Shown: positions 39,445-61,955 of the stretch, one piece after another | Position numbering within the stretch: the stretch's first letter is position 1 | Layout of the letters: each line of letters begins with the position of its first letter | Assembly: GCF_035594765.1 (NCBI RefSeq) | Contig: NW_026943819.1 | Location: 30,306,703-30,370,702, forward strand | DNA length: 64,000 bases | Direction: 5' to 3' | Source of the DNA: Anolis carolinensis | Taxonomy: Eukaryota | The notes under the pieces: model-generated | The model's input: only the letters and a program-made list of their open reading frames with translations | The model's database searches: none | Told to the model about the DNA's origin: nothing | Position numbers and translations under genes: made by a program

Positions 39445-41862
39445 GGAGAACTATAACTCCCAGGAACCCATGGAGAACTATAACTCCCAGTAACCTATGG
39501 AGAACTATAACTCCCAGGAACCCATGGAGAACTATAACTCCCAGTAGCCCATGGAGAACTACAACTCCCAGTAACCCATGGAGAAATATAACTCCCAGGA
39601 ACCCATAGCATTTGGCCAATGCCGCATCCGTTCTACAATGCAGACCTACCTAGGGAAGATGCAAGATCTTGGAGAACTATAACTCCCAGTAAGCCATGGA
39701 GAATTATAACTCCCAGTAGCCCATGGAGAACTATAACTCCCAGTAAGCCATGGAGAATTATAACTCCCAGTAGCCCATGGAGAACTATAACTCCCAGTAG
39801 CCCATGGAGAACTATAACTCCCAGTAGCCCATGGAGAACTATAACTCCCAGTAGCCCATGGAGAACTATAACTCCCAGTAGCCCATGGAGAACTATAACT
39901 CCCAGTAGCCCATGGAGAACTATAACTCCCAGTAGCCCATGGAGAACTATAACTCCCAGTAGCCCATGGAGAACTATAACTCCCAGTAAGCCATGGAGAA
40001 CTATAACTCCCAGTAGCCCATGGAGAACTATAACTCCCAGTAAGCCATGGAGAATTATAACTCCCAGTAGCCCATGGAGAACTATAACTCCCAGTAGCCC
40101 ATGGAGAACTATAACTCCCAGTAGCCCATGGAGAACTATAACTCCCAGTAGCCCATGGAGAACTATAACTCCCAGTAGCCCATGGAGAACTATAACTCCC
40201 AGTAGCCCATGGAGAACTATAACTCCCAGTAAGCCATGGAGAATTATAACTCCCAGTAGCCCATGGAGAACTATAACTCCCAGTAGCCCATGGAGAACTA
40301 TAACTCCCAGTAGCCCATGGAGAACTATAACTCCCAGTAGCCCATGGAGAACTATAACTCCCAGTAGCCCATGGAGAACTATAACTCCCAGTAGCCCATG
40401 GAGAACTATAACTCCCAGTAAGCCATGGAGAATTATAACTCCCAGTAGCCCATGGAGAACTATAACTCCCAGTAGCCCATGGAGAACTATAACTCCCAGT
40501 AGCCCATGGAGAACTATAACTCCCAGTAAGCCATGGAGAATTATAACTCCCAGTAGCCCATGGAGAACTATAACTCCCAGTAGCCCATGGAGAACTATAA
40601 CTCCCAGTAGCCCATGGAGAACTATAACTCCCAGTAGCCCATGGAGAACTATAACTCCCAGTAGCCCATGGAGAACTATAACTCCCAGTAGCCCATGGAG
40701 AACTATAACTCCCAGTAGCCCATGGAGAACTATAACTCCCAGTAAGCCATGGAGAATTATAACTCCCAGTAGCCCATGGAGAACTATAACTCCCAGTAGC
40801 CCATGGAGAACTATAACTCCCAGTAGCCCATGGAGAACTATAACTCCCAGTAGCCCATGGAGAACTATAACTCCCAGTAGCCCATGGAGAACTATAACTC
40901 CCAGTAAGCCATGGAGAATTATAACTCCCAGTAGCCCATGGAGAACTATAACTCCCAGTAGCCCATGGAGAACTATAACTCCCAGTAGCCCATGGAGAAC
41001 TATAACTCCCAGTAGCCCATGGAGAACTATAACTCCCAGTAGCCCATGGAGAACTATAACTCCCAGTAGCCCATGGAGAACTATAACTCCCAGTAAGCCA
41101 TGGAGAATTATAACTCCCAGTAGCCCATGGAGAACTATAACTCCCAGTAGCCCATGGAGAACTATAACTCCCAGTAGCCCATGGAGAACTATAACTCCCA
41201 GTAAGCCATGGAGAATTATAACTCCCAGTAGCCCATGGAGAACTATAACTCCCAGTAGCCCATGGAGAACTATAACTCCCAGTAGCCCATGGAGAACTAT
41301 AACTCCCAGTAGCCCATGGAGAACTATAACTCCCAGTAGCCCATGGAGAACTATAACTCCCAGTAGCCCATGGAGAACTATAACTCCCAGTAGCCCATGG
41401 AGAACTATAACTCCCAGTAAGCCATGGAGAATTATAACTCCCAGTAGCCCATGGAGAACTATAACTCCCAGTAGCCCATGGAGAACTATAACTCCCAGTA
41501 GCCCATGGAGAACTATAACTCCCAGTAGCCCATGGAGAACTATAACTCCCAGTAGCCCATGGAGAACTATAACTCCCAGTAGCCCATGGAGAACTATAAC
41601 TCCCAGTAGCCCATGGAGAACTATAACTCCCAGTAGCCCATGGAGAACTATAACTCCCAGTAAGCCATGGAGAATTATAACTCCCAGTAGCCCATGGAGA
41701 ACTATAACTCCCAGTAGCCCATGGAGAACTATAACTCCCAGTAGCCCATGGAGAACTATAACTCCCAGTAAGCCATGGAGAATTATAACTCCCAGTAGCC
41801 CATGGAGAACTATAACTCCCAGTAGCCCATGGAGAACTATAACTCCCAGGAACCCATGGAGA
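39445..41862. repeat. 27-bp minisatellite, roughly 85-90 copies
   Basis: (ggagaactataactcccagtagcccat)n with an interspersed variant unit. Confidence 0.97.
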
Positions 41863-44761
41863 AATATACAATATTCGCAACTGCTCCTCCTCCTCCTCCT
41901 CCTCTTATTTGAGCATTTGCAGCAGGATAAAAATAAAAGCGTGACTCCTGCTGTTTACAAACCCCAATCGGACAGGAAATACCAAGCCACTTGCCCGAAA
42001 CATCGAATTTCGTAACCATTTATTTCACAAAATATATAAAACCCCATCGGGCCCGAAGAAGCCATTGAAAGTCCTGGGAGCTGTAGTTTTGCAAGGCCTT
42101 TGGCCTTCTGTGCCACAGGATGCCGATGTGTCAGCAAACTACAAATCCCAGCATTGCATTGCATTGCATTGAGTCAATGCAATTTAATGAGAGGTGGGGT
42201 CCCGCAAAGAGGATTTCCTGAAGCAGCTTCCCCTTTGGCTTTGGCTCAGCACTATGATGCTCATGCCATGCGCAGCACCCTCATTTTGGGGAGGTGGGCA
42301 TTAGATCCAAGTCAAGATGACATCTGTCAGTCTTCTGGGGTCTACACGGCGATGGCGTTCTGCTTTGGAAGCATTGCAGAGCCCCATGGGAACCTTTGGA
42401 GGTGTCTGACCCACCAAGCGCATGAGCGCGATGCCTCCATGCGCTGCTTGGACGAGAGATAAGGCCGGGGCCTTTCGCACTCCATGCGCTCCCAGAGATA
42501 AGCGCCGTCGGCACCTCTGAGCGCACTTGCAGCTGCCAAGGAGGCTTCCAAAAAAAGGCGCTGGAGCGCGCAGGAAGAATACGCACCCCTGCGCATAAGT
42601 GCATGCATGTGCCCATTCTGTAGGACTGCAGAATCAGCTCCAAGCAAGGCCACAAGGAATAGCGCATGGGAGCAGAACTGCCCTTCATTAACTGAGGCTG
42701 GATCGACACTGCCATACAACCCAGATGATCAAATCAGATAATCCAGATTATCTGTTTTGAACTGGATTATATGCATCTACACCAGTGGTTCCCAAACTTA
42801 TTTGGCCCACCGCCCCCCTTCCAGAACAAATATTACTCAGCACCCCCTGGAAATTATTTTTTAATTTTAATAGCAATTAAATAGAAAGGAAATTGAAAAT
42901 TTCCAAGGGGGCAATGAGTAATATTTTTTCTGGAAGGGGGACGGTAGGCCAAATAAGTTTGGGAACCACTGCTCTACTGTATAGATATATATATAAATCT
43001 GTTCTGTCCATTTCTACCTTAATTCAAATAGCAAAACTACAAAACCCAGAAGTACGAAACTTGGCAACAAAACACATGGTCCTCCCCGCTGTGTTTAGAC
43101 GACAAAACCAAAACACAATTCGAAGTCCATGTCCCTCAAAATCCAAAAACAGCTATGTGCGCATGCGCGGAGCTGGCCCCTGCCCCCACCCTTGGAAGAC
43201 ATACGGGTATTTCAGCAACGCGCGAGCAGCCCAACCACCACGGCAGATGGCTTACCTTAATGTCAGGGGAAAACCTTTACCCTTTACCTTAACTACTAGT
43301 GTAATGAAGTATGAATTTTGGTTTACAGATGTTATGTTTAATTATAGATATATGTTTGGAATGGGTAAGTATTAGAGTTACCAGTGCGTGGGAGATGGTA
43401 GCCAGCTCAGCATTCTGAGGCAGGTTGCCATAGTAACGAGGGCGGAGCCATTTGGAGAAAAAGAGCAGAGTCTAAAAAGAAACTCAGTCTGTGATCTGAG
43501 AGTCACAGGGAAGAGACTGGTTCCAGGTTAGGGAAACCAGGGAAACTCAGATCTCTAGTTGTGTCATATTAAGCAAGTCAAGTGACTTGTTTGGGTTTAT
43601 TTGCAGAGTCTGAGTGGTAAGGGGAAGCAATCCCAGTTAGATCCAAAGTGATCAGTTGATAGCATCGGTTGCAAGAGAAGAAAAAGGTTTAAACTGCTCA
43701 AGGAAAGGAGAAAGTCTTTTGAAAGTGGATTCATCATATGTTATTATTGCAACTGTTGAAGAAAGTGTAACTCTAAGTGAAACTACTAAGCTCTGTGCCT
43801 GAATAAACGTGTTATTGTTCATTCAACATCCAAGCCTCTGTTGCATATATTCTAAACCAAGTTACGCTACCATCTAAAGTGAAGAAGAAGAAGAAAGGGA
43901 AAACACAGGAAAAGGTCTCCTCCCCGAGTCTTTGGTGGTGGCGCATTGCCAATTGGTGGTTGCATCTTTCTAAATTGGTGGCAGTCGTTAATAGTACTTT
44001 GCAAATTGGTGGCAGTGGTGGGATAAAAAGATTCCCCCTGCCTGAAGGAGCCTTAGATGTTCATAGTCCTTTACAACTACCAATTCCTCCATACTTTATT
44101 TCCCATACCACCATACTTCACCACAGCAACGCGTGGCCGGGCACAGCTAGTAGATATATATATAACCAAGGCACAAGAAACGGAGCAAACAGGGCTGGGT
44201 GCTCTTCCAAGGGTGAGAAAGCAAACACAAATGGCACCTGGATGCAAATACAACAATGGTGCCAAAGGGGCCCGATCCCTTGATTCTATAGCACTGAGCC
44301 ACGGCCTTGGAAGTGAGTGGAACCAAACTGCATTAACCGTACAGTGCAGGGAGCCTCCAAGAAGTTGTTGAGACGGTGGCGGCATTGCAACCCAACGTTG
44401 TCCCCAGGACTTTTGGTTGTGGAGGGTTCATAGAGTTTCTCCCCTTGGAGTCCTTCCTCATTAAGGAGAAGAATGTGTCTCTGGAAATAGAGGCAGGGAA
44501 GGGCCGGCAAAAGGGTGATGGGCCGAGCCGCCTTGCTTGTGTCAATGTCATGGGAGAGGCTCCCCACCCGCCCTTATCAGGACCAAAGACCACGATGGTG
44601 GGCGACAAGGAGAGAATCCCAACAATGTCCCGCGGCAGGAACGATGATCGGCCTCTTCGCTTGCTCTTTCGCACAACGCATCTTGAGTCACACTCTATGC
44701 AACACAATCGGGAAAACAAAGGTCCTGTCCCGGGCTTGAAAGTGTTGCTTCCTGTTTAATT

Positions 44762-46424: not shown

Positions 46425-47290
46425 GAGAGGTCCAACCCAATGATGCCATGCAGGAAAAGCACAATCAAAGCATCCCCGACAGATGGACATCCAGCCTCTG
46501 TTTCAAAGCCTCCAAGGAAGGCGCTTCCACCAGACTCCGAGGCAGAGAGTTCCGCTGCTGAACGGATTGTACAATCAAGAAGTTCTTCCTAATAAAGTTC
46601 AGGTGGAATCTCCTCTCCCGTCCTTTGAACCCATGGCTCCATTGAGTCCTAGTTTCCAGAAAACAGGCCTCTCCGTCTTCCTTATGGCATCCTTTCACAT
46701 ATTTAGACGTGGCTCTTCTCCTGTATCCTTCTCTCAATCTTCTCTTCTGAGGAGATCCAGGTCTTTAAGACACTCCTCAGAGGGATTATTCATGGTCTCC
46801 AGACCTTGGATCCTCTTCCTCTGGACTCCTTAGAGTCAATCTCTCTTTTGGACTGTGGGACCCAGAATTGGACACGGTGTGGTTCCAGGAGAAGAGGTCT
46901 GACCAAAGCAGACCTTCTTCCCTTGATTGGGACACTCGACCCCTTTGGATGCAGCCCAGAATCCCATTGCCCATTTGAGCTGCTGCATCACACTCTTGGC
47001 TCATGTTCAGCTTGTTCTCCATGAAGACTCCAAGATCCTTTTCACATGGAACCATGCCTGAGTGGAGCATCTTATATTTCTCCTTGTTGACATCCACTGT
47101 GTGAGTTTTGGCCAATCATCTCTCTCATGGGTTGAGGTCCTTTTGCCTCCTGGTCTTGTCCTCTGGAGTCTTGACTCTCCCAATTTGGTCCCATCTGAAA
47201 ACTTGATAAGAAGAAGGTCCTCCAAACCTTCATCCAAGTCATTGATGAAGATGTTGTCTGGTCTTGATGGCATCCTTCTTCCATTACTTT
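46425..47290 (-). mobile_element. Degraded CR1 LINE 3' fragment
   Basis: NIFINDLDEG, EKDLGV..KLNMSQECDAAA and EAPSLEALKQRLD motifs with frameshifts. Confidence 0.85.
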
Positions 47291-48167
47291 GCCCACAACA
47301 AGACACAAAGCTATTATTCCAGGTGAGAAGGTCTTCCCAAACCAGAACTTCATCCAAGTCATTGATGAAGATGTTGTCTGGTCTTGATGGCATCTTTCTT
47401 CCATTACTTTGCCCACAAAGAGACACAAAGCTATTATTCCAGGTGAGAAGGTCTTCCCAAACCAGAACTTCATCCAAGTCATTGATGAAGATGTTGTCTG
47501 GTCTTGATGGCATCTTTCTTCCATTACTTTGCCCACAAAGAGACACAAAGCTATTATTCCAGGTGAGAAGGTCTTCCCAAACCAGAACTTCATCCAAGTC
47601 ATTGATGAAGATGTAGTCTGGTCTTGATGGCATCCTTCTTCAATGACTTTGCCCAGAACGAGACACAGCGCCATCCTTCCAGGTGAGAAGGTCTTCCCAA
47701 ACCAGAACTTCATCCAAGTCATTGATGAAGATGTTGTCTGGTCTTGATGGCATCCTTCTTCAATGACTTTGCCCAGAACGAGACACAAAGCTATTATTCC
47801 AGGTGAGAAGGTCTTCCCAAACCAGAACTTCATCCAAGTCATTGATGAAGATGTTGTCTGGTCTTGATGGCATCCTTCTTCAATGACTTTGCCCAGAACG
47901 AGACACAAAGCTATTATTCCAGGTGAGAAGGTCTTCCCAAACCAGAACTTCACCCAAGTCATTGATGAAGATGTTCCTCTCTTGATGGCATCCTTCTTCC
48001 ATTACTTTGCCCAGAACAAGACACAAAGTTATTATTCCGGGTGAGAAGGTCTTCCCAAACCAGAACTTCATCCAAGTCATTGATGAAGATGTTGTCTGGT
48101 CTTGATGGCATCCTTCTTCCATGACTTTGCCCAGAACAAGACACAGAGCCATCCTTCCAGGTGAGAA
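47230..48167. repeat. 120-bp tandem repeat (~8 units) derived from CR1 sequence
   Basis: 120-bp period directly visible. Confidence 0.9.
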
Positions 48168-48349: not shown

Positions 48350-48576
48350 GAATGTTTACACCATGCTCATTAAGAGAGCGGCGCATTTGTGAGATTAGGG
48401 ACCGAAATCTGGTGGACAGCTTACACTGGAGGAGATAAGGCGGCGAAGGCGACCATCGGAGACCAGATCCAATTACTGAGACCTGGGCGAAAGGGGGTGG
48501 GATCCGGGGGAGAGGCGTCTGCATCACAAGTGCCCGGCCAGAGCTTCCAGACTTGACGAGCTCCGTATATATATAT
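48350..48576 (+). promoter_or_regulatory. BMP10 proximal promoter
   Basis: TGTTTAC (forkhead) at ~48353, AGATAA at 48433, CAAGTG (NKX2-5-like) at 48527, TATA run at 48566-48576. Confidence 0.55.
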
Positions 48577-48637: not shown

Positions 48638-49020
48638 ATGGGAAGGGTGACCATGAGGTTGGTGGCCTTGCAGATGTGGGCCCTTGTGTTGCTCAGGTTT
48701 GGAGACGGAGGCCCCATCCGAGACCTGGATGCGCCGGAGGACGTGGCCTTCTTCGACGAGCAGGACCCCGTCCTGCAGAACCTGTTGAAGGCCCTCAACA
48801 TCTCCGAGGTCCCCGTCCAGGAGCCGGCCAAGGTGGAGCCTCCTGAATACATGCTGGAGCTCTTCCACCGCTTCGCCCTGGACAAGAGCTCCATGCCCGC
48901 CGCCAACATCGTCCGCAGCTTCAAGAACGAAGGTAAGGAGACCTTGGAGACCGGCCGGCCGGACGTTGCCTCGCTCTTGGTGACCTCTTGGGCGGCGGGG
49001 GGGGGGGGGGGGGAAGGAAA

Positions 49021-49062
<42 letters not shown>

Positions 49063-49154
49063 TTATTATGACACAGCAAACAAGATAGATATGCTGGATT
49101 TCATATCACAAAATCACAAGTCAAACACTTCCCAAGTGTCTAGGACTGTGTGAT

Positions 49155-49194
<40 letters not shown>

Positions 49195-49279
49195 GACACA
49201 GCAAACAAGATAGATATGCTGGATTTCGTATCACAAAATCACAAGTCAAACACTTCCCAAGTGTCTAGGACTGTGTGAT

Positions 49280-49333
<54 letters not shown>

Positions 49334-49541
49334 TATGACACAGCAAACAAGATAGATATGCTGGATTTCATATCACAAAATCACAAGTCAAACACTTCCC
49401 AAGTGTCTAGGACTGTGTGATGTATGATTATTATTATTATTATTATTATTATTATGACACAGCAAACAAGCTAGATATGCTGGATTTCGTATCACAAAAT
49501 CACAAGTCAAACACTTCCCAAGTGTCTAGGACTGTGTGATG

Positions 49542-49598
<57 letters not shown>

Positions 49599-50445
49599 GA
49601 CACAGCAAACAAGATAGATATGCTGGATTTTGTATCACAAAATCACAAGTCAAACACTTCCCAAGTGTCTAGGACTGTGTGATGTATTTTCGGATGATGC
49701 TGCAGATCCCAGTAGGGTGGTCTTTTGCAGCTGGCAGATCGTAATTTTGTCAATGTCTATTGTTTCCAAATGCCGGCTGAGATCTTTTGGCACGGCACCC
49801 AGTGTGCCCATCACCACCGGGACCACCTGCACTGGTTTCTGCAGAGTCTTTGAAGTTCAATCTTGAGGTCCTGATAGCGGCTGAGTTTTTCCTGTTGTTT
49901 TTCGTCAATGCGACTGTCACCTGGGATGGCGACATCAATGATCCAAACCTTTTTCTTTTCCACAACTGTGATGTCTGGTGTGTTGTGTTCCAGAACTTTG
50001 TCAGTCTGGATCCGGAAGTCCCACAGTATCTTTGCGTGCTCATTTTCCAGTACTTTTGCAGGTTTGTGATCCCACCAGTTCTTTGCTGCTGGGAGGTGGT
50101 ACTTGAGGCATAAGTTCCAATGAATCCTTTGGGCCACATAGTTGTGCCTCTGTTTGTAGTCTGTCTGTGCGATTTTCTTACAGCAGCTGAGGATATGATC
50201 AATGGTTTCGTCGGTTTCCTTGCACAGTCTGCATTTTGGGTCATCAGCTGATTTTTCGATCTTGGCCTGAATGGCCTTTGTCCTAATGTCTTGCTCCTGG
50301 GCTGCAAGGATCATTATTATTATTGTTATTATTATTATTATTATTATTAATGGCCTTTGTCCTGATGTCTTGCTCCTGGGCTGCAAGGATCAGGCCTTCT
50401 GTCTCCTTCTTCAGGGTCCCATTCGTGAGCCAGAGCCAGGTCTTC

Positions 50446-50492
<47 letters not shown>

Positions 50493-50585
50493 GCCTTTGT
50501 CCTGATGTCTTGCTCCTGGGCTGCAAGGATCAGGCCTTCTGTCTCCTTCTTCAGGGTCCCATTCGTGAGCCAGAGCCAGGTCTTC

Positions 50586-50659
<74 letters not shown>

Positions 50660-53655
50660 GCCTTTGTCCTGATGTCTTGCTCCTGGGCTGCAAGGATCAG
50701 GCCTTCTGTCTCCTTCTTCAGGGTCCCATTCGTGAGCCAGAGCCAGGTCTTCTCCTTATCAGCTTTTCCTTCTATTTTGTCATGGAACTTTCCATGCCAT
50801 GTTTTGTTGTGCCAGCTGTCAGCTCTAGTTTGTAGTGCGGTTTTCTTGTACTGGTTTTTTGTCTGCTGTGCTTTGAGGAGTTTGATTTTTGACTTCAATC
50901 AAAGCAGGTTCTTCACTTTGCTTTACATATTTTATTATGATTAAATGTAATAATAGTAGCTATAAGATTAATAAATTGTCTTATTAATGGTTTGATTTTA
51001 ATTGTATGTTTCAATTTTTCATTTGTGTGTTTTTGGTATTTGATGTTTTTGTATGTATACTCTTTTGCATTTGTAAGCCACCCTGAGTCCCTGCGGAGAG
51101 ATAGAGGTGGGGTACAAGAATAAAATAATAATAATAATTAATACTATTAATCTATTAATACTATTACTGCATTTATTATTGTATTTATATGTATTTATTA
51201 TATAATTTCATTGCTGTTGTTGTTGTTTACAGCCTGCCTTTGATTGAGGTGCACAGCAACAAAAGTGACCTCTTTGTTGATTCCCCGTTTGCAGAGCGGC
51301 TCTAGCGGCCCACTTCATATTAATTAATATTACAGCTTATTGTATTTATTACAGCATTGCGCTCTCTTTGTTGTTTTGCAGAGTGGCTCTCACGGCCCAC
51401 TTCATATTGATTAATATTACAACTACTACGGGTATTATTGTTATTGCCTTTATTTCAGCATTGCACTCTATTGTTTTGCAGAGTGGCTCTCACGGCCCAC
51501 TTCATATTGATTAATATTACAACTACTACGGGTATTATTGTTATTGCATTTATTACAGCATTGCACTCTATTGTTTTGCAGAGTGGCTCTCGCGGCCCAC
51601 TTCATATTGATTAATATTACAACTACTACGGGTATTATTGTTATTGCATTTATTACAGCATTGTGCTCTCTTTGTTGTTTTGCAGAGTGGCTCTCACGGC
51701 CCACTTCATATTGATTAATATTACAACTACTACGGTTATTATTGTTATTGCATTTATTTCAGCATTGCACTCTATTGTTTTGCAGAGTGGCTCTCACGGC
51801 CCACTTCATATTGATTAATATTACAACCACTACGGGTATTATTGTTATTGCCTTTATTACAGCATTGCGCTCTCTTTGTTGTTTTGCAGAGTGGCTCTCA
51901 CGGCCCACTTCATATTGATTAATATTACAACTACTACGGGTATTATTGTTATTGCCTTTATTACAGCATTGCGCTCTCTTTGTTGTTTTGCAGAGTGGCT
52001 CTCACGGCCCACTTCATATTGATTAATATTACAACTACTACGGGTATTATTGTTATTGCCTTTATTTCAGCATTGCACTCTATTGTTTTGCAGAGTGGCT
52101 CTCACGGCCCACTTCATATTGATTAATATTACAACTACTACGGGTATTATTGTTATTGCATTTATTACAGCATTGCACTCTATTGTTTTGCAGAGTGGCT
52201 CTCGCGGCCCACTTCATATTGATTAATATTACAACTACTACGGGTATTATTGTTATTGCATTTATTACAGCATTGTGCTCTCTTTGTTGTTTTGCAGAGT
52301 GGCTCTCACGGCCCACTTCATATTGATTAATATTACAACTACTACGGTTATTATTGTTATTGCATTTATTTCAGCATTGCACTCTATTGTTTTGCAGAGT
52401 GGCTCTCACGGCCCACTTCATATTGATTAATATTACAACCACTACGGGTATTATTGTTATTGCCTTTATTACAGCATTGCGCTCTCTTTGCTGTTTTGCA
52501 GAGTGGCTCTCGCGGCCCACTTCATATTGATTAATATTACAACTACTACGGTTATTATTGTTATTGCATTTATTTCAGCATTGCACTCTATTGTTTTGCA
52601 GAGTGGCTCTCACGGCCCACTTCATATTGATTAATATTACAACCACTACGGGTATTATTGTTATTGCCTTTATTACAGCATTGCGCTCTCTTTGCTGTTT
52701 TGCAGAGCGGCCGTGGCGGCCCGTGTCCTCTCCCGGCGCCCGGCGGTACCCGCTGCTCTTCAACGTCTCCGTCCCGGACTTTGAGAAGATCACGCTGGCG
52801 GAGCTGCGTCTCTTCACGCTGGTGGAGCGGGACCACGCGCGGTACGACAGCCTGGGCGGGAAGGTGACGGTGCTGGAGGTCCACCAAGGCGGAGGCGGGG
52901 AGGATCCTAAGAGGAGGGTCCTGGCCTCCAGGCACACCTTCGGCACCGACCACGAGTGGAAGACCTTCGAGGTGACGGAGGCCGTCCGCAAGGCACATCG
53001 ACTCCACGCCAGCCTTCTTCGCCTGGAGGTCCAGATCGAGAACCGAGGAGGAGGAAGAGGAGGAGGAGGAGGACGGGACCCCGAGAGGAGAGTGGACGTC
53101 GACCTGGACACGGAGGCCAAGCACGAGCCGCTCCTGATCGTCTTCTCCGACGACCGGAGCCAGGCCGCGAGGGAGGCCCAGCTCCAGCTCAACGAGATGA
53201 TGGAGCACGAAGGGCCGGTGGCGCCGGAGGAGGAGGAGGAGGAGAACCCCTGGGACCGGGACGGAGACCTCCTCCAGATGCGCTCCAACCTGATCTACGA
53301 CTCGGCCTCTCGCCGGCGGAGGAACGCCAAGGCCGGGGTGGGCGCGGGCTGCAAGAAGGCCTCGCTCCACGTGGACTTCAAGGAGATCGGCTGGGACTCC
53401 TGGATCATCGCCCCGCTGCACTACGACGCCTTCCAGTGCCGCGGGGCCTGCGCCTTCCCGCTGGACGGGCCGCCCTCCACCACGCACGCCATGGCCCGGG
53501 CCCTCCTCCGCCTCGGGGACCCCGACCGGGCCGCCCCCGTCTGCTGCGTGCCCACCCGCCTGGCCCCCATCTCCCTCCTCTACCTGGAGAAGGGCGTCGT
53601 CACCTTCAAGACCAAGTACGAGGACATGGTGGTGGCCGAGTGCGGATGCCGGTAG
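48638..53655 (+). CDS. BMP10: Bone morphogenetic protein 10 precursor, 2 exons, 414 aa
   Basis: join(48638-48932,52706-53655), phase-1 intron. Prodomain motif PPEYMLEL..SMPAANIVRSFKNE, LLQMRSNLIYD, furin site RRRR|NAK, TGF-beta cystine knot DFKEIGWDSWIIAP...CCVPT...ECGCR. Synteny. Confidence 0.95.
49021..50885 (-). mobile_element. R4/Dong-clade LINE fragment in the BMP10 intron, with repeated 3' tails and TAA-separated internal duplications
   Basis: CRLC..HILSCC zinc knuckle, RHN, PD..D, K..Y RLE motifs; (TAA)n tails. Confidence 0.85.
51290..52705 (+). repeat. 100/104-bp tandem array built from the BMP10 splice acceptor
   Basis: Fifteen tttgcag|ag junctions; 612-bp higher-order period. Confidence 0.93.
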
Positions 53656-53839
53656 GGCCGCCCCAAGCCCCCCCCCCCCGGTCAGTGTGGACGGACTCCG
53701 GCCCTTGTACAGCCCCCCCCCCCGGTCTCATTTGGGAGGCGTGTACAGGTCACGGACACGGGGGTACAACGGGGCACTGAGACGGTCAGGGAAGATGGCG
53801 TGGCCCGTGCGGAAAGCGGAGAGACTAAGTGAAAGACAG

Positions 53840-54710
53840 GATGCTATAGGTGCGACTCATGCGCTGCAGCACAGACTGGATCCACACTGGGATATCATGC
53901 GTTATCGCAGGCACGGGAAAACTTTAGTTTCCCCTCCATCCGGTAGGACAGGTCACCATAGGTGTGAATTATGCACTGCAGCACAGACTGGATCCACACT
54001 GCCGTACAATGCGCATAAGGTCTGACATGCTAGGTCCAGCATGTAATGTCTTTCTCTAATCCTCCTCCTCCTCCTCTCCAGATGCTAGAGAAGTACAGGT
54101 CACCATAGGTGCAACTCATGCGCTGCAGCACAGACGGGATCCACACTGGGATATCATGCGTTATCGCAGGCACGGGAAAACTTTAGTTTCCCCTCCATCT
54201 GGTAGGACAGGTCACCATAGGTGCGATTCATGCGCTGCAGCACAGACCGGAACAACACTGGGATATCATGCGTTATCACAGGCACGGGCACACTTTAGTT
54301 TCCCCTCCATCCGGTAGGACAGGTCACCATAGGTGTGAATCATGCGCTGCAGCACAGACTGGATCCACACTGGGATATCATGCATTACAGCAGGCACGGG
54401 AAAACTTTAGCTTCCCCTCCATCCGGTAGGACAGGTCACCATAGGTGCGATTCATGCACTGCAGCACAGGCTGAATCCACGCTTCTGTATCATGTGTTAT
54501 CGCAGGCATGGGCAAAGTTTAGCTTCCCCTCCATCCGGTAAGACAGGTCACCATAGGTGCGATTCATGCGCTGCAGCACAGACTGGATCCACACTGGGAT
54601 ATCATGCATTACAGCAGGCACGGGCACACTTTAGCTTCCCCTCCATCTGGTAGGACAGGTCACCATAGGTGCGATTCATGCTCTGCAGCACAGACTGGAT
54701 CCACACTGCC
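53840..54710. repeat. ~112-bp tandem repeat (~8 units) just after the BMP10 stop
   Basis: Repeats of caggtcaccataggtgcgattcatgcgctgcagcacagactgg. Confidence 0.88.
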
Positions 54711-55682
54711 ATTTCACGTTTTATTGGGCTCTCAATGCAAAGGGACTTTTCTCCTTCCGGACCAAGCTCTGCGTGGCCTCCGCTCCAGCGGCATGCACGC
54801 ACACATGCACGCATGCGGTGTCGGGGTCACATGCCATGTTTCCGCCACTCTCCTCCGACAAATGGCTGCGATAAGAAGGTGTCGGGGCCGAGAAGCCATG
54901 GGCCTGGTGCTTTATTTATACTAAGCTGGAGATTTGTCAGATTCTTTGGGAAGTGTAATTGACGCGGGCAAGTCCATTGGGCCAGACCTTCCCCGGCCTC
55001 CCTTTTAGTCTTTTAAGGCAAAGAGTGCGGCTCCTCCGCCAGAGATAATCAGGACTGACCGACTGACCGACCGACTGACCGACCATCCCCCCCCCAAAGC
55101 CCCCTCCCAGGACTGGACTATTTATTGCTCTATTTATTGACAGATTCTCCTTGTAAATATAATGTAGAATATGGAAATGTTGCATTTTATTTTATTTTTT
55201 TGTGCTTGTAGCTTCTGGTGCATCGAATCGTATCGCAGATTCCCCTGAAAGTGTTTGTAAATAGGCATCGTCATGTTTCCTTTTGTAAAAAAGTGTTATG
55301 CAAAATATAACGGCATCCAATAGACAGGTTTGTCTCTCTCTCTGTGTTGTCGTTGTTATTGCACTGAAGTCAATGGAGAGGCATGAGTTGGCCACGTTTG
55401 AGTTGAATCCGGTTGAATTCCGTGGCTGAATTCCAGGAGGACCGGCGGGCACTTCTTCACGCTTACTCAATTCCATGGAGTGCGACACTTAAACTCCGGG
55501 AAGCCACTGCTCTCGTCATATTAGTTTGGCTTCGAGTGTAGTAGAGAGCATTCTTTGCGCATTTGGAGCATCGGGTCCAGAATTCTTTTCAAATGTTTCA
55601 GGAGGTGATAGGGAACTGGATTTTTTGAAAATCATCTGGATATGTGGCCAGTTCTCTAATGTGATGGCATTCATGAGTGGGG

Positions 55683-55733
<51 letters not shown>

Positions 55734-58648
55734 ACATCATTTCTATTCCGCCCTGTCAATCAGAAGCTGATCTTTGGTGCCCTTACTTCTTCTTTTAATG
55801 CCTTTTTGTTCTACTGGCAAGATGTTATTGCATCCATGCACAGCTATGAAAGTGGGCAAAAAGCATGCACTAAAAAGGACTTTGCTAATTGCAAAGAGTG
55901 CAATAGACAGCTCCCAGGATCGCATTGCATCAATGCATAGCTATGAAAGTGGAGCAAAAAAGCACGGACAAAAAAGGTCTTTGCAAATTGCAAAGAGTGC
56001 AAAAGACAGCTCCCAGGATTGCATTGCATCCATGCACGGCTAGGAAGGTGGGCAAAAAAGCACATACACAAAGGGTCTTTGCAAATTGCAGAGTGCAAAA
56101 GACAGCTCCCGGGATCCCATTGCATCCATGCATGGCCATGAAAGTGGGGCAAAAGGCATGCATCATTTGTACACTCAAAAGGTCTTTGCAAAATTCACCC
56201 TGCTCCAAAAGGCAGGGCATCCCATGCAACCACGAAACCCCGTTGTCCTTTTGCAAAACGTTGTCTGAGCCTTGCTGCCTGCAGTGCCTCCTTTCCAGGG
56301 CATCTTCCCAGAGCAAATGTCAGCCTGCTTTGGGTGCCAAGGAGGTTAATCAGGGCGGGAGGGTGTTGAAAGGCCCTCAGACCCCCAAAAACATTCCCAG
56401 CGTCCAGCGCCCGTGTTGGCCTTTGCTGTGGCAACTCCTTATCTCCAAAGAGATTAGCGGATTTTTCCAATCTCGGTTTGCAAAGATGGATCCATTTCCT
56501 GAGCTGTCACCACCATCACAGGCAGCAGGAGCCAAAACTTCAGCAAAGGCTGCAAGGAGCACATCCGCACCATGGAACGGGCTAGTTGTTGTTGTTGTTG
56601 CTATTATTATATATAATAATAATAATAATAACTTACAATGTTACATTGTTATATTATTATATATCATTATTTTATATTATTATTATATATCATTATTTCC
56701 TGCTTCTTAGCAGGGGGTTGGACTGGATGGCCCATGAGGTCTCTTCCAACTCTACTATTCTATGATTCTATGATTATAATTATATAATTTATTATTTATT
56801 TATTTACAGCATTTATATTCCGCCCTTCTCACCCCGAAGGGGACTCATATATAATATAATGTTATATTATTATTATATTATTATTATATATCATTATTTT
56901 ATATTATTTTATATTATTATTATTATTATATAATGCTATTATATTATTATTATTATATATCATTATTTTATATTATTGTTATTATTATTATTGACACAAC
57001 AACATTGTACAGTATGGCACAGCAAACAAGATAAATATGCTGGATTTTGTATCACAAAATCACAAGTCGAACACTTCCCAGGTGTTGTTGTTATTGTTAT
57101 TATTATTATTATTATTATCTCTGGCTTTGTCCCAGGAGTAATAACTATATACAGTAGAGTCTCACTTATCCAACACTTGCTTATCCAACATTCTGGATTA
57201 TCCAACGCATTTTTGTAGTCAATGTTTAAATATATCGTGATATTTTGGTGCTAAATTCGTAAATACAGTAATTACTACAGAGCATTACTGCGTATTGAAC
57301 TACTTTTTCTGCCAAATTTTTTGTGTAACATGATGTTTTGGTGCTTCATTTGTGAAATCATAGCCTAATTTGATGTTTAATAGGCTTTTCCTTAATGCCT
57401 CCTTATTATCCAACATATTTGCTTATCCAACATTCTGCCGGCCCGATTAGATTGGATAAGTGAGACTCTACTGTATAACTCGCAGGAGTAGTAACTATAG
57501 CGGTTCATGATCTTAAAAACACTTTAACACTGAAAAACCTACAAAATATACTCCCAAAATTGACACAGCCTAGCCTTTCCACTGCTCAGGATGATGGGAC
57601 TTGTAGTCCAACACACTCGAAGCTGAGGGTGATGGGGTTTATAGTCTAGTGCGCATGAAACGGGACGGCCTGGACGGGCGCACAGGGAACGCCATAGAGA
57701 ACGCCCGGAAGCATGCGCATGAGTTCTAGCGCACGGAAGTGGTGGCGCGACACGCTTCAAAGCAACATTCCAAAACAAAGCAGAGCCTCGTATTACGACC
57801 GACCGACCGACCGACCGACCGAGCCGTGTTCCTTGGGAAAAGCGGCTCCGGCCAGAGGTCGAGGTCCGGCTTGCGGAGGCCGTTGGCCTTTCTATAAATA
57901 CGGCCATTAGCGCCCGGTTCCTTCCTTCCTTCCTTCCTTCCTTCCTTCCCGGCTTGACCTCCGAGGCCACAAGGCAACGCTTTCTCAAAGAGGCGCAAAG
58001 GCCCTGCCTGCCAGGAGGAGACGCGGAGCATTTCTGGTGCGCTCTTCCTATCTGCAAGGGAAGTGGGAGAGGGGCCTCGCGGGTGCAAAAACGGACACCC
58101 GCTCACATCCGCTGGCAAAGCAGCCCAGGCTCTCTCTCTCTCTCTCTCTCTCTCTCTTGCGTCATAGGAAAAAATGCACAACATGTTTCCAAGGGCAGAG
58201 CAGGCTTGTGGGACTTTCCATCCGGGAAAGCATTCACGTCTTTCATTCCTGGGCTCTGGCGTCTTGCAAAGGCATCTTGCAAATATTGTTATGTCCGCAC
58301 AACAGCTTGGTGTTCACACTGACCTTGCCGTGATGGCAAAGAAACCCACAATCCAAAAAGCCATCGTAAAACCCAGCAGCCACTCCAAAGGACGCTCCCC
58401 AAAATCCACCTTAAAATCCAGGAAGACAAACCAGAGGAGGCCTCCCCGAAACCCACCTTGGAATTAGGCAGCTGTGCCAAGAAGAGGCCCGAAACCCACC
58501 TTAAAATCCAGGCAAATATCAACAAATTCCCTAATTGTATTATGATAGGTTGTTTTTATATTTTGCTATATTGTATTGTTCTGGGCATGGCCCCATGTAA
58601 GCCGCCCCGAGTCCCCGTTGGGGAGATGGTGGCGGGATATAAATAAAG

Positions 58649-60049: not shown

Positions 60050-60096
<47 letters not shown>

Positions 60097-60097
<1 letters not shown>

Positions 60098-60748
60098 CCA
60101 AAATGCAGACTGTGCAAGGAAGCTGATGAAACCATCGATCATATCCTCAGCTGCTGTAAGAAAATTGCACAGACAGACTACAAACAGAGGCACAACTCTG
60201 TGGCCCAAATGATTCATTGGAACTTATGCCTCAAGTCCCACCTCCCAGCAGCAAAGAACTGGTGGGATCACAAACCTGCAAAAGTATTGGAAAATGAACA
60301 TGCAAAGATACTGTGGGACTTCCGAATCCAGACTGACAAAGTTCTGGAACACAACACACCAGACATCACAGTTGTGGAAAAGAACAAGGTTTGGATCATT
60401 GATGTTGCCATCCCAGGTGACAGTCGCATTGACGAAAAACAACAGGAAAAACTCAGCCGCTCTCAGGACCTCAAGATTGAACTTCAAAGACTCTGGCAGA
60501 AACCAGTGCAGGTGGTCCCGGTGGTGATGGGCACACTGGGTGCCGTGCCAAGAAATCTCAGCCGGCATTTGGAAACAATAGACATTGACAAAATTACGAT
60601 CTGCCAACTGCAAAAGGCCACCCTACTGGGATCTGCAGCATCATCCGAAAATACATCACACAGTCCTAGGCACTTGGGAAGTGTTCGACTTGTGATTTTG
60701 TGATACGAAATCCAGCATATCTATCTTGTTTGCTGTGTCATACAATAA

Positions 60749-61210: not shown

Positions 61211-61955
61211 TATAATAATAAAACTTTATTTGTATTCCGCCCTATCTCCCCGAAGGGACTCAGGGCGGATTCCAACATAAAATGGCAAACATTCAATGCC
61301 TCCAAAAAGCAAACAAATATTGACATAAAAATCCCAGAGAAACCCCACATATAAAAATAACATTAAAACCTCACATCAATTTAAAGTCTAACATCAATAA
61401 ATTAAACCTAACATCAATAAATCAAACTATGTGTAGTCAAAAAAATTATATAAAAATTATATAGAAATCCAAACAAGCATCCACATTAATGCATTTGGAC
61501 CCAACTTTGACTGTCATAGCTCAATACGATGGAGTCTTGGAAGCTGTTTTACAAGGTCTGTCTCGGCTCGCCGTCAAATAGTGTTGATGCCTCACCGAAC
61601 TACAACTCCCATGATTCCACAGTACTGAGTTCATACATAGTGCATAGCCAGAGTTCAGAAGCACTCGTCCCAAAATGCCAGGTTAGAACACAAAATCCAA
61701 AAGCTTAACATTAATCCCAAGGTATATCCATGAACACGGACACAGGAACTTCTCCAAAGATATATAGGCGTGAATAGGAACATGAAACAGGAATCTAGGC
61801 TGCAGAGACACCTCAATGCAATGGTTTATTGAAGATAGTATGCAAGCAAAAGCAAATCAAAGTTCAAAGTCACTAAAGCAAGGTACAAGGCGCTTAAGAA
61901 TCTGGAAGAAAGGGTCCATAGAAATCCAAACACAAGGATAAACTTCTATCAAGGT

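Follow-up and report, generated by a model that had tools for sequence, protein, structure and literature searches.

How is a single working 3' splice site recognized when 14 copies of it stand upstream in the same intron? The BMP10 gene of the lizard Anolis carolinensis raises this question. We analyzed the gene within a stretch of 64,000 nucleotides (the window; all positions are those of the window), and the upstream copies of the acceptor are called decoys below. Statements from the literature rest on the available parts of the cited papers.

The two coding parts of the gene (Table 1), once joined, translate to 414 residues, and the second of them matched the Pfam families PF00019 (TGF_beta) and PF00688 (TGFb_propeptide). 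Among the 120 matches listed for exon 2, BMP10 of A. sagrei stood at the top (83%), and those that carried a gene name were all BMP10. Compared with solved prodomains in the PDB, exon 2 gave an E value of 5e-42 for BMP10 and 3.6e-13 for BMP9. Judged by these comparisons, the gene is BMP10 rather than BMP9. It is intact, and since its mature domain is identical to that of A. sagrei at 105 of 108 positions (97%), it is maintained. The donor at 48932 and the acceptor at 52705 are backed both by spliced contigs and by a protein alignment that stays in register over the junction. Mouse BMP10 has two exons (PMC9908740), and by extrapolation exon 2 is probably terminal in the anole. Scanning of positions 53656-58642, about 5 kb 3' of the stop codon, revealed neither AATAAA nor ATTAAA before a first AATAAA at 58642. 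The same flank holds a tandem array of 5.5 copies of 112 bp (54095-54708). In the mature domain (53340-53655), 91% of third codon positions are G or C. This domain is unusually divergent: its identity to the gorilla ligand is 64/107 in the anole, 72-78/107 in five other squamates and 98/108 in the alligator, which suggests that evolution of the ligand sped up in squamates and a second time on the stem of the anoles.

The original prediction of 14 tandem copies ahead of the acceptor was confirmed: the array runs head-to-tail from 51295 to 52705, and all 15 acceptor-like AGs sit exactly at the coordinates given for them. Tandem Repeats Finder described it with a period of 100, 13.3 copies, 92% matches and a score of 2252. 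As claimed, the units end in a pyrimidine tract followed by TGCAG (14 of 14 decoys) and restart like exon 2. The first 17 bases past the AG occur in three decoy types, which agree with the beginning of exon 2 at 14, 12 and 13 positions. None of the 1,901 other CAG sites on the two strands of the window reached a match of at least 12/17, so that the likeness of the decoys to exon 2 is not due to chance. The predicted unit length of 100 or 104 bp applies to units 2-14, but unit 1 has only 87 bp; from 5' to 3', the AG spacings are 87, 100, 100, 104, 100, 104, 104, 100, 100, 104, 100, 104, 100 and 104. Some 30-34 bases ahead of the AG, the units carry a motif that we take to be branch-point-like by its resemblance to the consensus. 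Each unit also carries further AGs on which the prediction had not remarked, at 23 or 27 bases ahead of its main AG and at 2 bases past it.

The array comprises nine distinct sequences among its 14 units. Units 2-14 account for eight of them in 13 units (identity 89-100%, mean 94%), and unit 1 is the most divergent, matching the other units at 73-80 of 104 columns. Five of 21 pairs of variable columns showed all four combinations, a pattern as in a minisatellite that is turning over. A repeat within the array, in which one long block recurs at an offset of 612 bases (Table 1), hints at unequal exchange. Elsewhere in the 64-kb window, a search for copies of the unit yielded nothing beyond weak low-complexity matches. 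Acceptor-like sites as such are common: outside the array, 222 YAGs with at least 14 pyrimidines in 21 bases were counted on the forward strand, including nine in unique sequence of the BMP10 intron. By sequence, the distinctive point is that the decoys are copies of a working site.

Table 1. Positions of the BMP10 coding parts, the intron and the acceptor-side array in the window
Feature	Position	Strand	Description
BMP10 exon 1, coding part	48638..48932	+	98 codons plus 1 base; spliced contigs start at 48559-48574
BMP10 intron	48933..52705	+	3,773 bases, GT..AG, phase 1; first decoy after 2,362 bases
Unique AT-rich intron stretch	51138..51228	+	Best match to the unit body
First decoy	51255..51311	+	Own pyrimidine tract, AG ending at 51294, 14/17 exon-2-like bases with in-frame TAG
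Unit 1, divergent border unit	51295..51381	+	87 bp
Higher-order duplication in the array	51345..52490	+	51345-51878 and 51957-52490 exactly identical; 534 bases, offset 612
Units 2-14	51382..52705	+	100 or 104 bp: 17 exon-like bases, AT-rich body, branch-point-like motif, pyrimidine tract, TGCAG
Twin acceptor	52309..52501	+	193 bases identical to 52513-52705; first difference 3 bases into the exon side
Two alternative in-frame AGs	52602..52678	+	AGs ending at 52603 and 52678; would add 34 or 9 prodomain residues
Working acceptor AG	52704..52705	+	Contig ends at 48932 continue with 52706-52735 in runs X9, X18 and X20
BMP10 exon 2, coding part	52706..53655	+	Prodomain, furin site, TGF-beta domain, stop; 69% GC

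Evidence on splicing came from assembled contigs matching exon 1 in four sequencing runs of four studies, chosen from 24 listed. The runs are presumed to be RNA, with the tissue unlabelled, and the joined GT..AG form was taken as the mark of splicing. In X9, X18 and X20, which belong to three studies, a single exon-1 contig each was found (depths 28, 193 and 7, respectively); it leaves at 48932 and goes on into exon 2 (first 30 bases). No contig end in these three runs led into a decoy, in assemblies that drop rare variants. The contigs therefore reveal the majority form and give no junction ratio, and in steady-state sequence a site that is not used looks like one that is used and whose product is then degraded. 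The contig of the fourth run, X6, continues unspliced into the intron at a depth of 4 and is uninformative on acceptor choice. A processed BMP10 retrocopy is an improbable source of the joined contigs: X6 held the unspliced form only, and the spliced contigs showed no other letters on exon 1. The word shares of the runs, considered as a possible sign of the array in other animals, were 0.87-0.92 for the top DNA-sized runs and 0.80-0.85 for the spliced ones, and exon-only words made up 0.81 of the distinct words; the margin amounts to a few sampled words.

The twin acceptor at 52501 offers the closest comparison with the working site. Because the two are identical over 193 intron bases, the branch point, the pyrimidine tract and the AG cannot separate them, and from this identity the choice of acceptor likely rests on the exon side. 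The pyrimidine count in 21 bases is likewise 16 at the working site and at seven of the 14 decoys, and 14 at the other seven. On the exon side, we used GC and U content as proxies for enhancer features: the 100 bases past the AG are 70% GC and 19% U at the working site versus 35-41% GC and 38-43% U at the decoys. Where two 3' sites compete in human internal exons, preference usually falls on the upstream one, though to a lesser degree under exon definition (PMC9225289, available text), so that passing over 14 intact sites on the upstream side departs from the default. The use of the last site in BMP10 fits exon definition. The first alternative of the original prediction, that strong exon definition selects the last acceptor, is thus in agreement with splicing to 52705 in three of four runs, with none to a decoy and with the identical intron side of 52501; selection itself is what we infer from these observations.

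Two other roles of the units were considered and rejected. A ratchet point of recursive splicing is an AG directly followed by a donor GT. The main AGs of the array precede AG and not GT, and the GTs within the units, compared by eye, match the gene's own donor poorly. A 50-base cassette exon in each unit, running from the AG to an internal GT, would have a poor donor and a following intron of 50-54 bases.

Splicing of exon 1 to a decoy had been predicted to reach a stop within about nine codons (TCA TAT TGA). This stop was confirmed for 13 of the 14 decoys, with a conceptual product of 107 amino acids; in the first decoy (51294), a TAG comes earlier, after three codons, and the product has 101 amino acids. 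None of these products encodes the ligand, and their transcripts would gain 1,025-2,350 untranslated bases. The accompanying claim that EJC-dependent nonsense-mediated decay (NMD) would not apply to the last exon was too strong as a statement on decay, since an EJC-independent branch of NMD exists (PMC10680754) and the terminal position of exon 2 is extrapolated from mouse. Only three of 154 AGs in the intron restore the frame: the working one at 52705 (414 residues), 52678 (9 residues more) and 52603 (34 residues more). Use of the latter two was not seen in the spliced contigs of the three runs. The AG at 52677-52678 lies 27 bases before the working acceptor, and its nine added residues would include two cysteines. 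Being about 7 bases past the likely branch point, it is probably too close for use.

Arrays that repeat a splice site are known from other animals. In amphioxus, "mirage" minisatellites with tandem units over an intron-exon border were described in the globin genes BflGb6 (acceptor side) and BflGb9 and in Adh3, troponin C and PGBD5, and were reported to leave splicing intact (PMC3087553, PMC3902484, available text). The BflGb6 units join the 3' end of an intron to the beginning of exon 2; their signals are intact, splicing is normal, array length is variable and the borders are divergent (PMC3087553). By its sequence, the BMP10 array is such a mirage, showing five of six mirage features. Its units are minisatellite-like and lie head-to-tail; they span the intron-exon border of the host gene, and their ends are the working acceptor's own intron end. 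Furthermore, the splice signal is kept in many units (TGCAG in every decoy), splicing at the authentic site is retained as the majority form in three of four runs, and concerted turnover is accompanied by a divergent border unit, as at mirage borders (PMC3087553). For the sixth feature, length instability between haplotypes or cells, the 612-base internal duplication gives no more than a hint. The BMP10 array differs in having 14 decoys instead of the three to six of BflGb6, only 17 exon bases per unit and a probably terminal exon, and in its host, an amniote with a gene that is essential in mouse.

Human minisatellites at donor sites are a second point of reference: F7 intron 7 (37 bp), LMNB2 (100 bp, 10-15 units), PDGF intron 4 (81 bp), IFI6/6-16 and CBS intron 13 (PMC1557585). 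In F7, LMNB2 and PDGF, only the authentic donor next to the full exon is used, whereas neighbouring repeat-borne donors are used too in IFI6 and CBS (PMC1557585, available text). They share with the BMP10 array an end unit that spans the border and an intact splice site repeated many times; LMNB2 also agrees with it in unit size and roughly in copy number. However, the human arrays repeat the 5' donor downstream of an exon, while the BMP10 array repeats the 3' acceptor upstream, so that its decoys, unlike the human donor copies, are transcribed first and lie nearer to the partner site. In contrast to IFI6 and CBS, no use of adjacent copies was seen in the BMP10 contigs. In the open-access literature (most subscription papers lie outside it), no report of the BMP10 array or of any reptile mirage was found, and the available text of PMC10078293 and PMC13196383 describes no array that repeats an acceptor.

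The explanation that we consider probable is that the array copied the BMP10 intron-exon border 14 times, that the last copy is chosen by virtue of its GC-rich exon, and that the spare copies are functionless by-products of repeat turnover. Proteins bound to exonic enhancers, together with terminal-exon definition, would favour the last AG, which stands ahead of 950 bases of coding exon with 69% GC. Each decoy AG would be disfavoured, as it is followed within 17 bases by U-rich sequence of 35-41% GC. Rare decoy products would be fragments of 101-107 amino acids lacking the ligand and candidates for EJC-independent decay.

The array may have originated in a short duplication of the intron end plus 17 exon bases, in which the intron segment was partly lost. 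The piece in the middle, made of those 17 exon bases and the intron end, would then have been amplified and shuffled through conversion or unequal exchange; the copy farthest 5' would retain older intron context, and the working acceptor would be repeat-derived. The first decoy, which has a longer intron end of its own, is possibly a relic of the original acceptor. The unique AT-rich stretch at 51138-51228 is likely the source of the unit body, on moderate evidence: control windows reached its score in 0, 0 and 1 of 1,516 cases for three unit bodies, with low-complexity sequence and overlapping windows. Next to it, 51072-51135 is the end of a short dispersed repeat with about 80% matches at 9783-9847 and 61225-61275, and its AAT tail runs into the AT-rich stretch resembling the unit body, which may derive from a decayed retroelement tail. 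The third codon of exon 2 is Leu in the decoys and in A. sagrei and Pro in the working exon, a hint that the decoys may have kept the ancestral state; CpG decay could account for part of this.

Tandem repeats make up 30% of the window, with nine minisatellite arrays (period at least 25, at least four copies, at least 85% matches), which makes an array at this place unremarkable. An array at 47228-48167 has 7.8 copies of 120 bp and lies about 400 bases upstream of the region where the BMP10 transcript starts; an adjoining frame resembles a reverse-transcriptase fragment by eye and had no significant Pfam support. A minisatellite at 39670-41868 has 81 copies of 27 bp and open frames of 752-807 codons on both strands, probably because the unit length is divisible by three. 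The BMP10 intron also holds a retroelement fragment on the reverse strand (49021-50753) with a weak Pfam match to zf-RVT, 91-96% copies of which lie at 249-852 and 60093-60648; short segments adjoining its ATT microsatellites are tandemly duplicated several times. Among the 17 other long frames of the window, Pfam returned a single weak retroelement match.

Different readings of the same observations have to be weighed against turnover without function. It is unlikely that the decoys are used appreciably and that their products are lost to EJC-independent decay or fail to survive contig assembly through rarity and heterogeneity, the array then costing BMP10 output without being a selected regulator. 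Their pyrimidine tracts, branch-like motifs and AGs are intact, the extra untranslated bases would meet a decay branch that does exist (PMC10680754), and if use were divided among 14 sites, each single junction would be rare, in contigs that drop rare variants; IFI6 and CBS do use repeat-borne donors (PMC1557585). This reading is opposed by the three spliced runs, one at a depth of 193, in which no contig ended in a decoy, and by RT-PCR on amphioxus mirages, which suggested no interference (PMC3087553, available text). Somewhat more improbable is a leaky amniote mirage on the acceptor side, in which the decoys together would divert a measurable share of BMP10 transcripts into unproductive splicing and array length would act in wild anoles as a heritable dial on a dose-sensitive cardiac ligand. 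Structural masking, in which local RNA structure would hide the decoy AG or pyrimidine tract and exon-side sequence would not be decisive, is the least probable reading of all. Short stems around the AG are possible in each unit in some folding windows, but with three window sizes the pyrimidine tract was unpaired at 0.42-0.59 in the decoys versus 0.53-0.54 at the working site. The unpaired probability of the AG was 0.04, 0.35 and 0.31 at the working site versus 0.13-0.67 at the decoys, so that the working AG is as paired as theirs or more so.

We regard it as very unlikely that the array is a selected rheostat, the second alternative of the original prediction, in which the number of copies determines how much splicing is unproductive and hence the dose of BMP10. 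The gene is essential in the heart of the mouse; in one human family, dilated cardiomyopathy co-segregates with a heterozygous nonsense allele (PMC9857772). Dose may therefore matter, although mice heterozygous for a Bmp10 null allele are both viable and fertile (PMC9857772, available text). Early stops follow at every one of the 14 main decoys, yet they are expected from AT-rich intron sequence anyway. Mirage arrays vary in length (PMC3087553), but the arrangement matches a class of repeats that reportedly leave splicing undisturbed (PMC3087553, PMC3902484, available text). Moreover, comparable minisatellites without gene context fill the window, and the spliced contigs, which drop rare forms, contain no decoy junction. 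That the array or its length is an artefact of assembly is more improbable still. The 534-base exact duplication could be a mis-joined block, five N gaps lie elsewhere in the window, and one amphioxus mirage was reportedly mis-assembled in a draft (PMC3087553). Against this stand the nine distinct sequences among the units, the recombined columns and the divergent border unit, which are unlike assembly stutter; there is no N in or near the array, and eight decoys remain after removal of the duplicated 612-base block. The array as such is better established than its exact count of 14.

In summary, the array is real, non-random and a member of a known repeat class, and it is most likely neutral. 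It extends mirage repeats, a described oddity, to a reptile and to a gene that is essential in mouse. It also provides a natural experiment, in which two acceptors with the same 193 intron bases stand 204 bases apart and use is seen at the downstream one only. Such twin acceptors could serve to weigh exon-side sequence and terminal-exon definition against rules of proximity or first come in the choice of a 3' splice site. At the CBS and ABCA7 VNTRs, repeat length reportedly changes the isoform ratio. If decoy use in BMP10 were measurable and dependent on array length, it would amount to a simple control of the dose of a cardiac BMP by repeat length, in a lizard whose many public data sets would allow its study.
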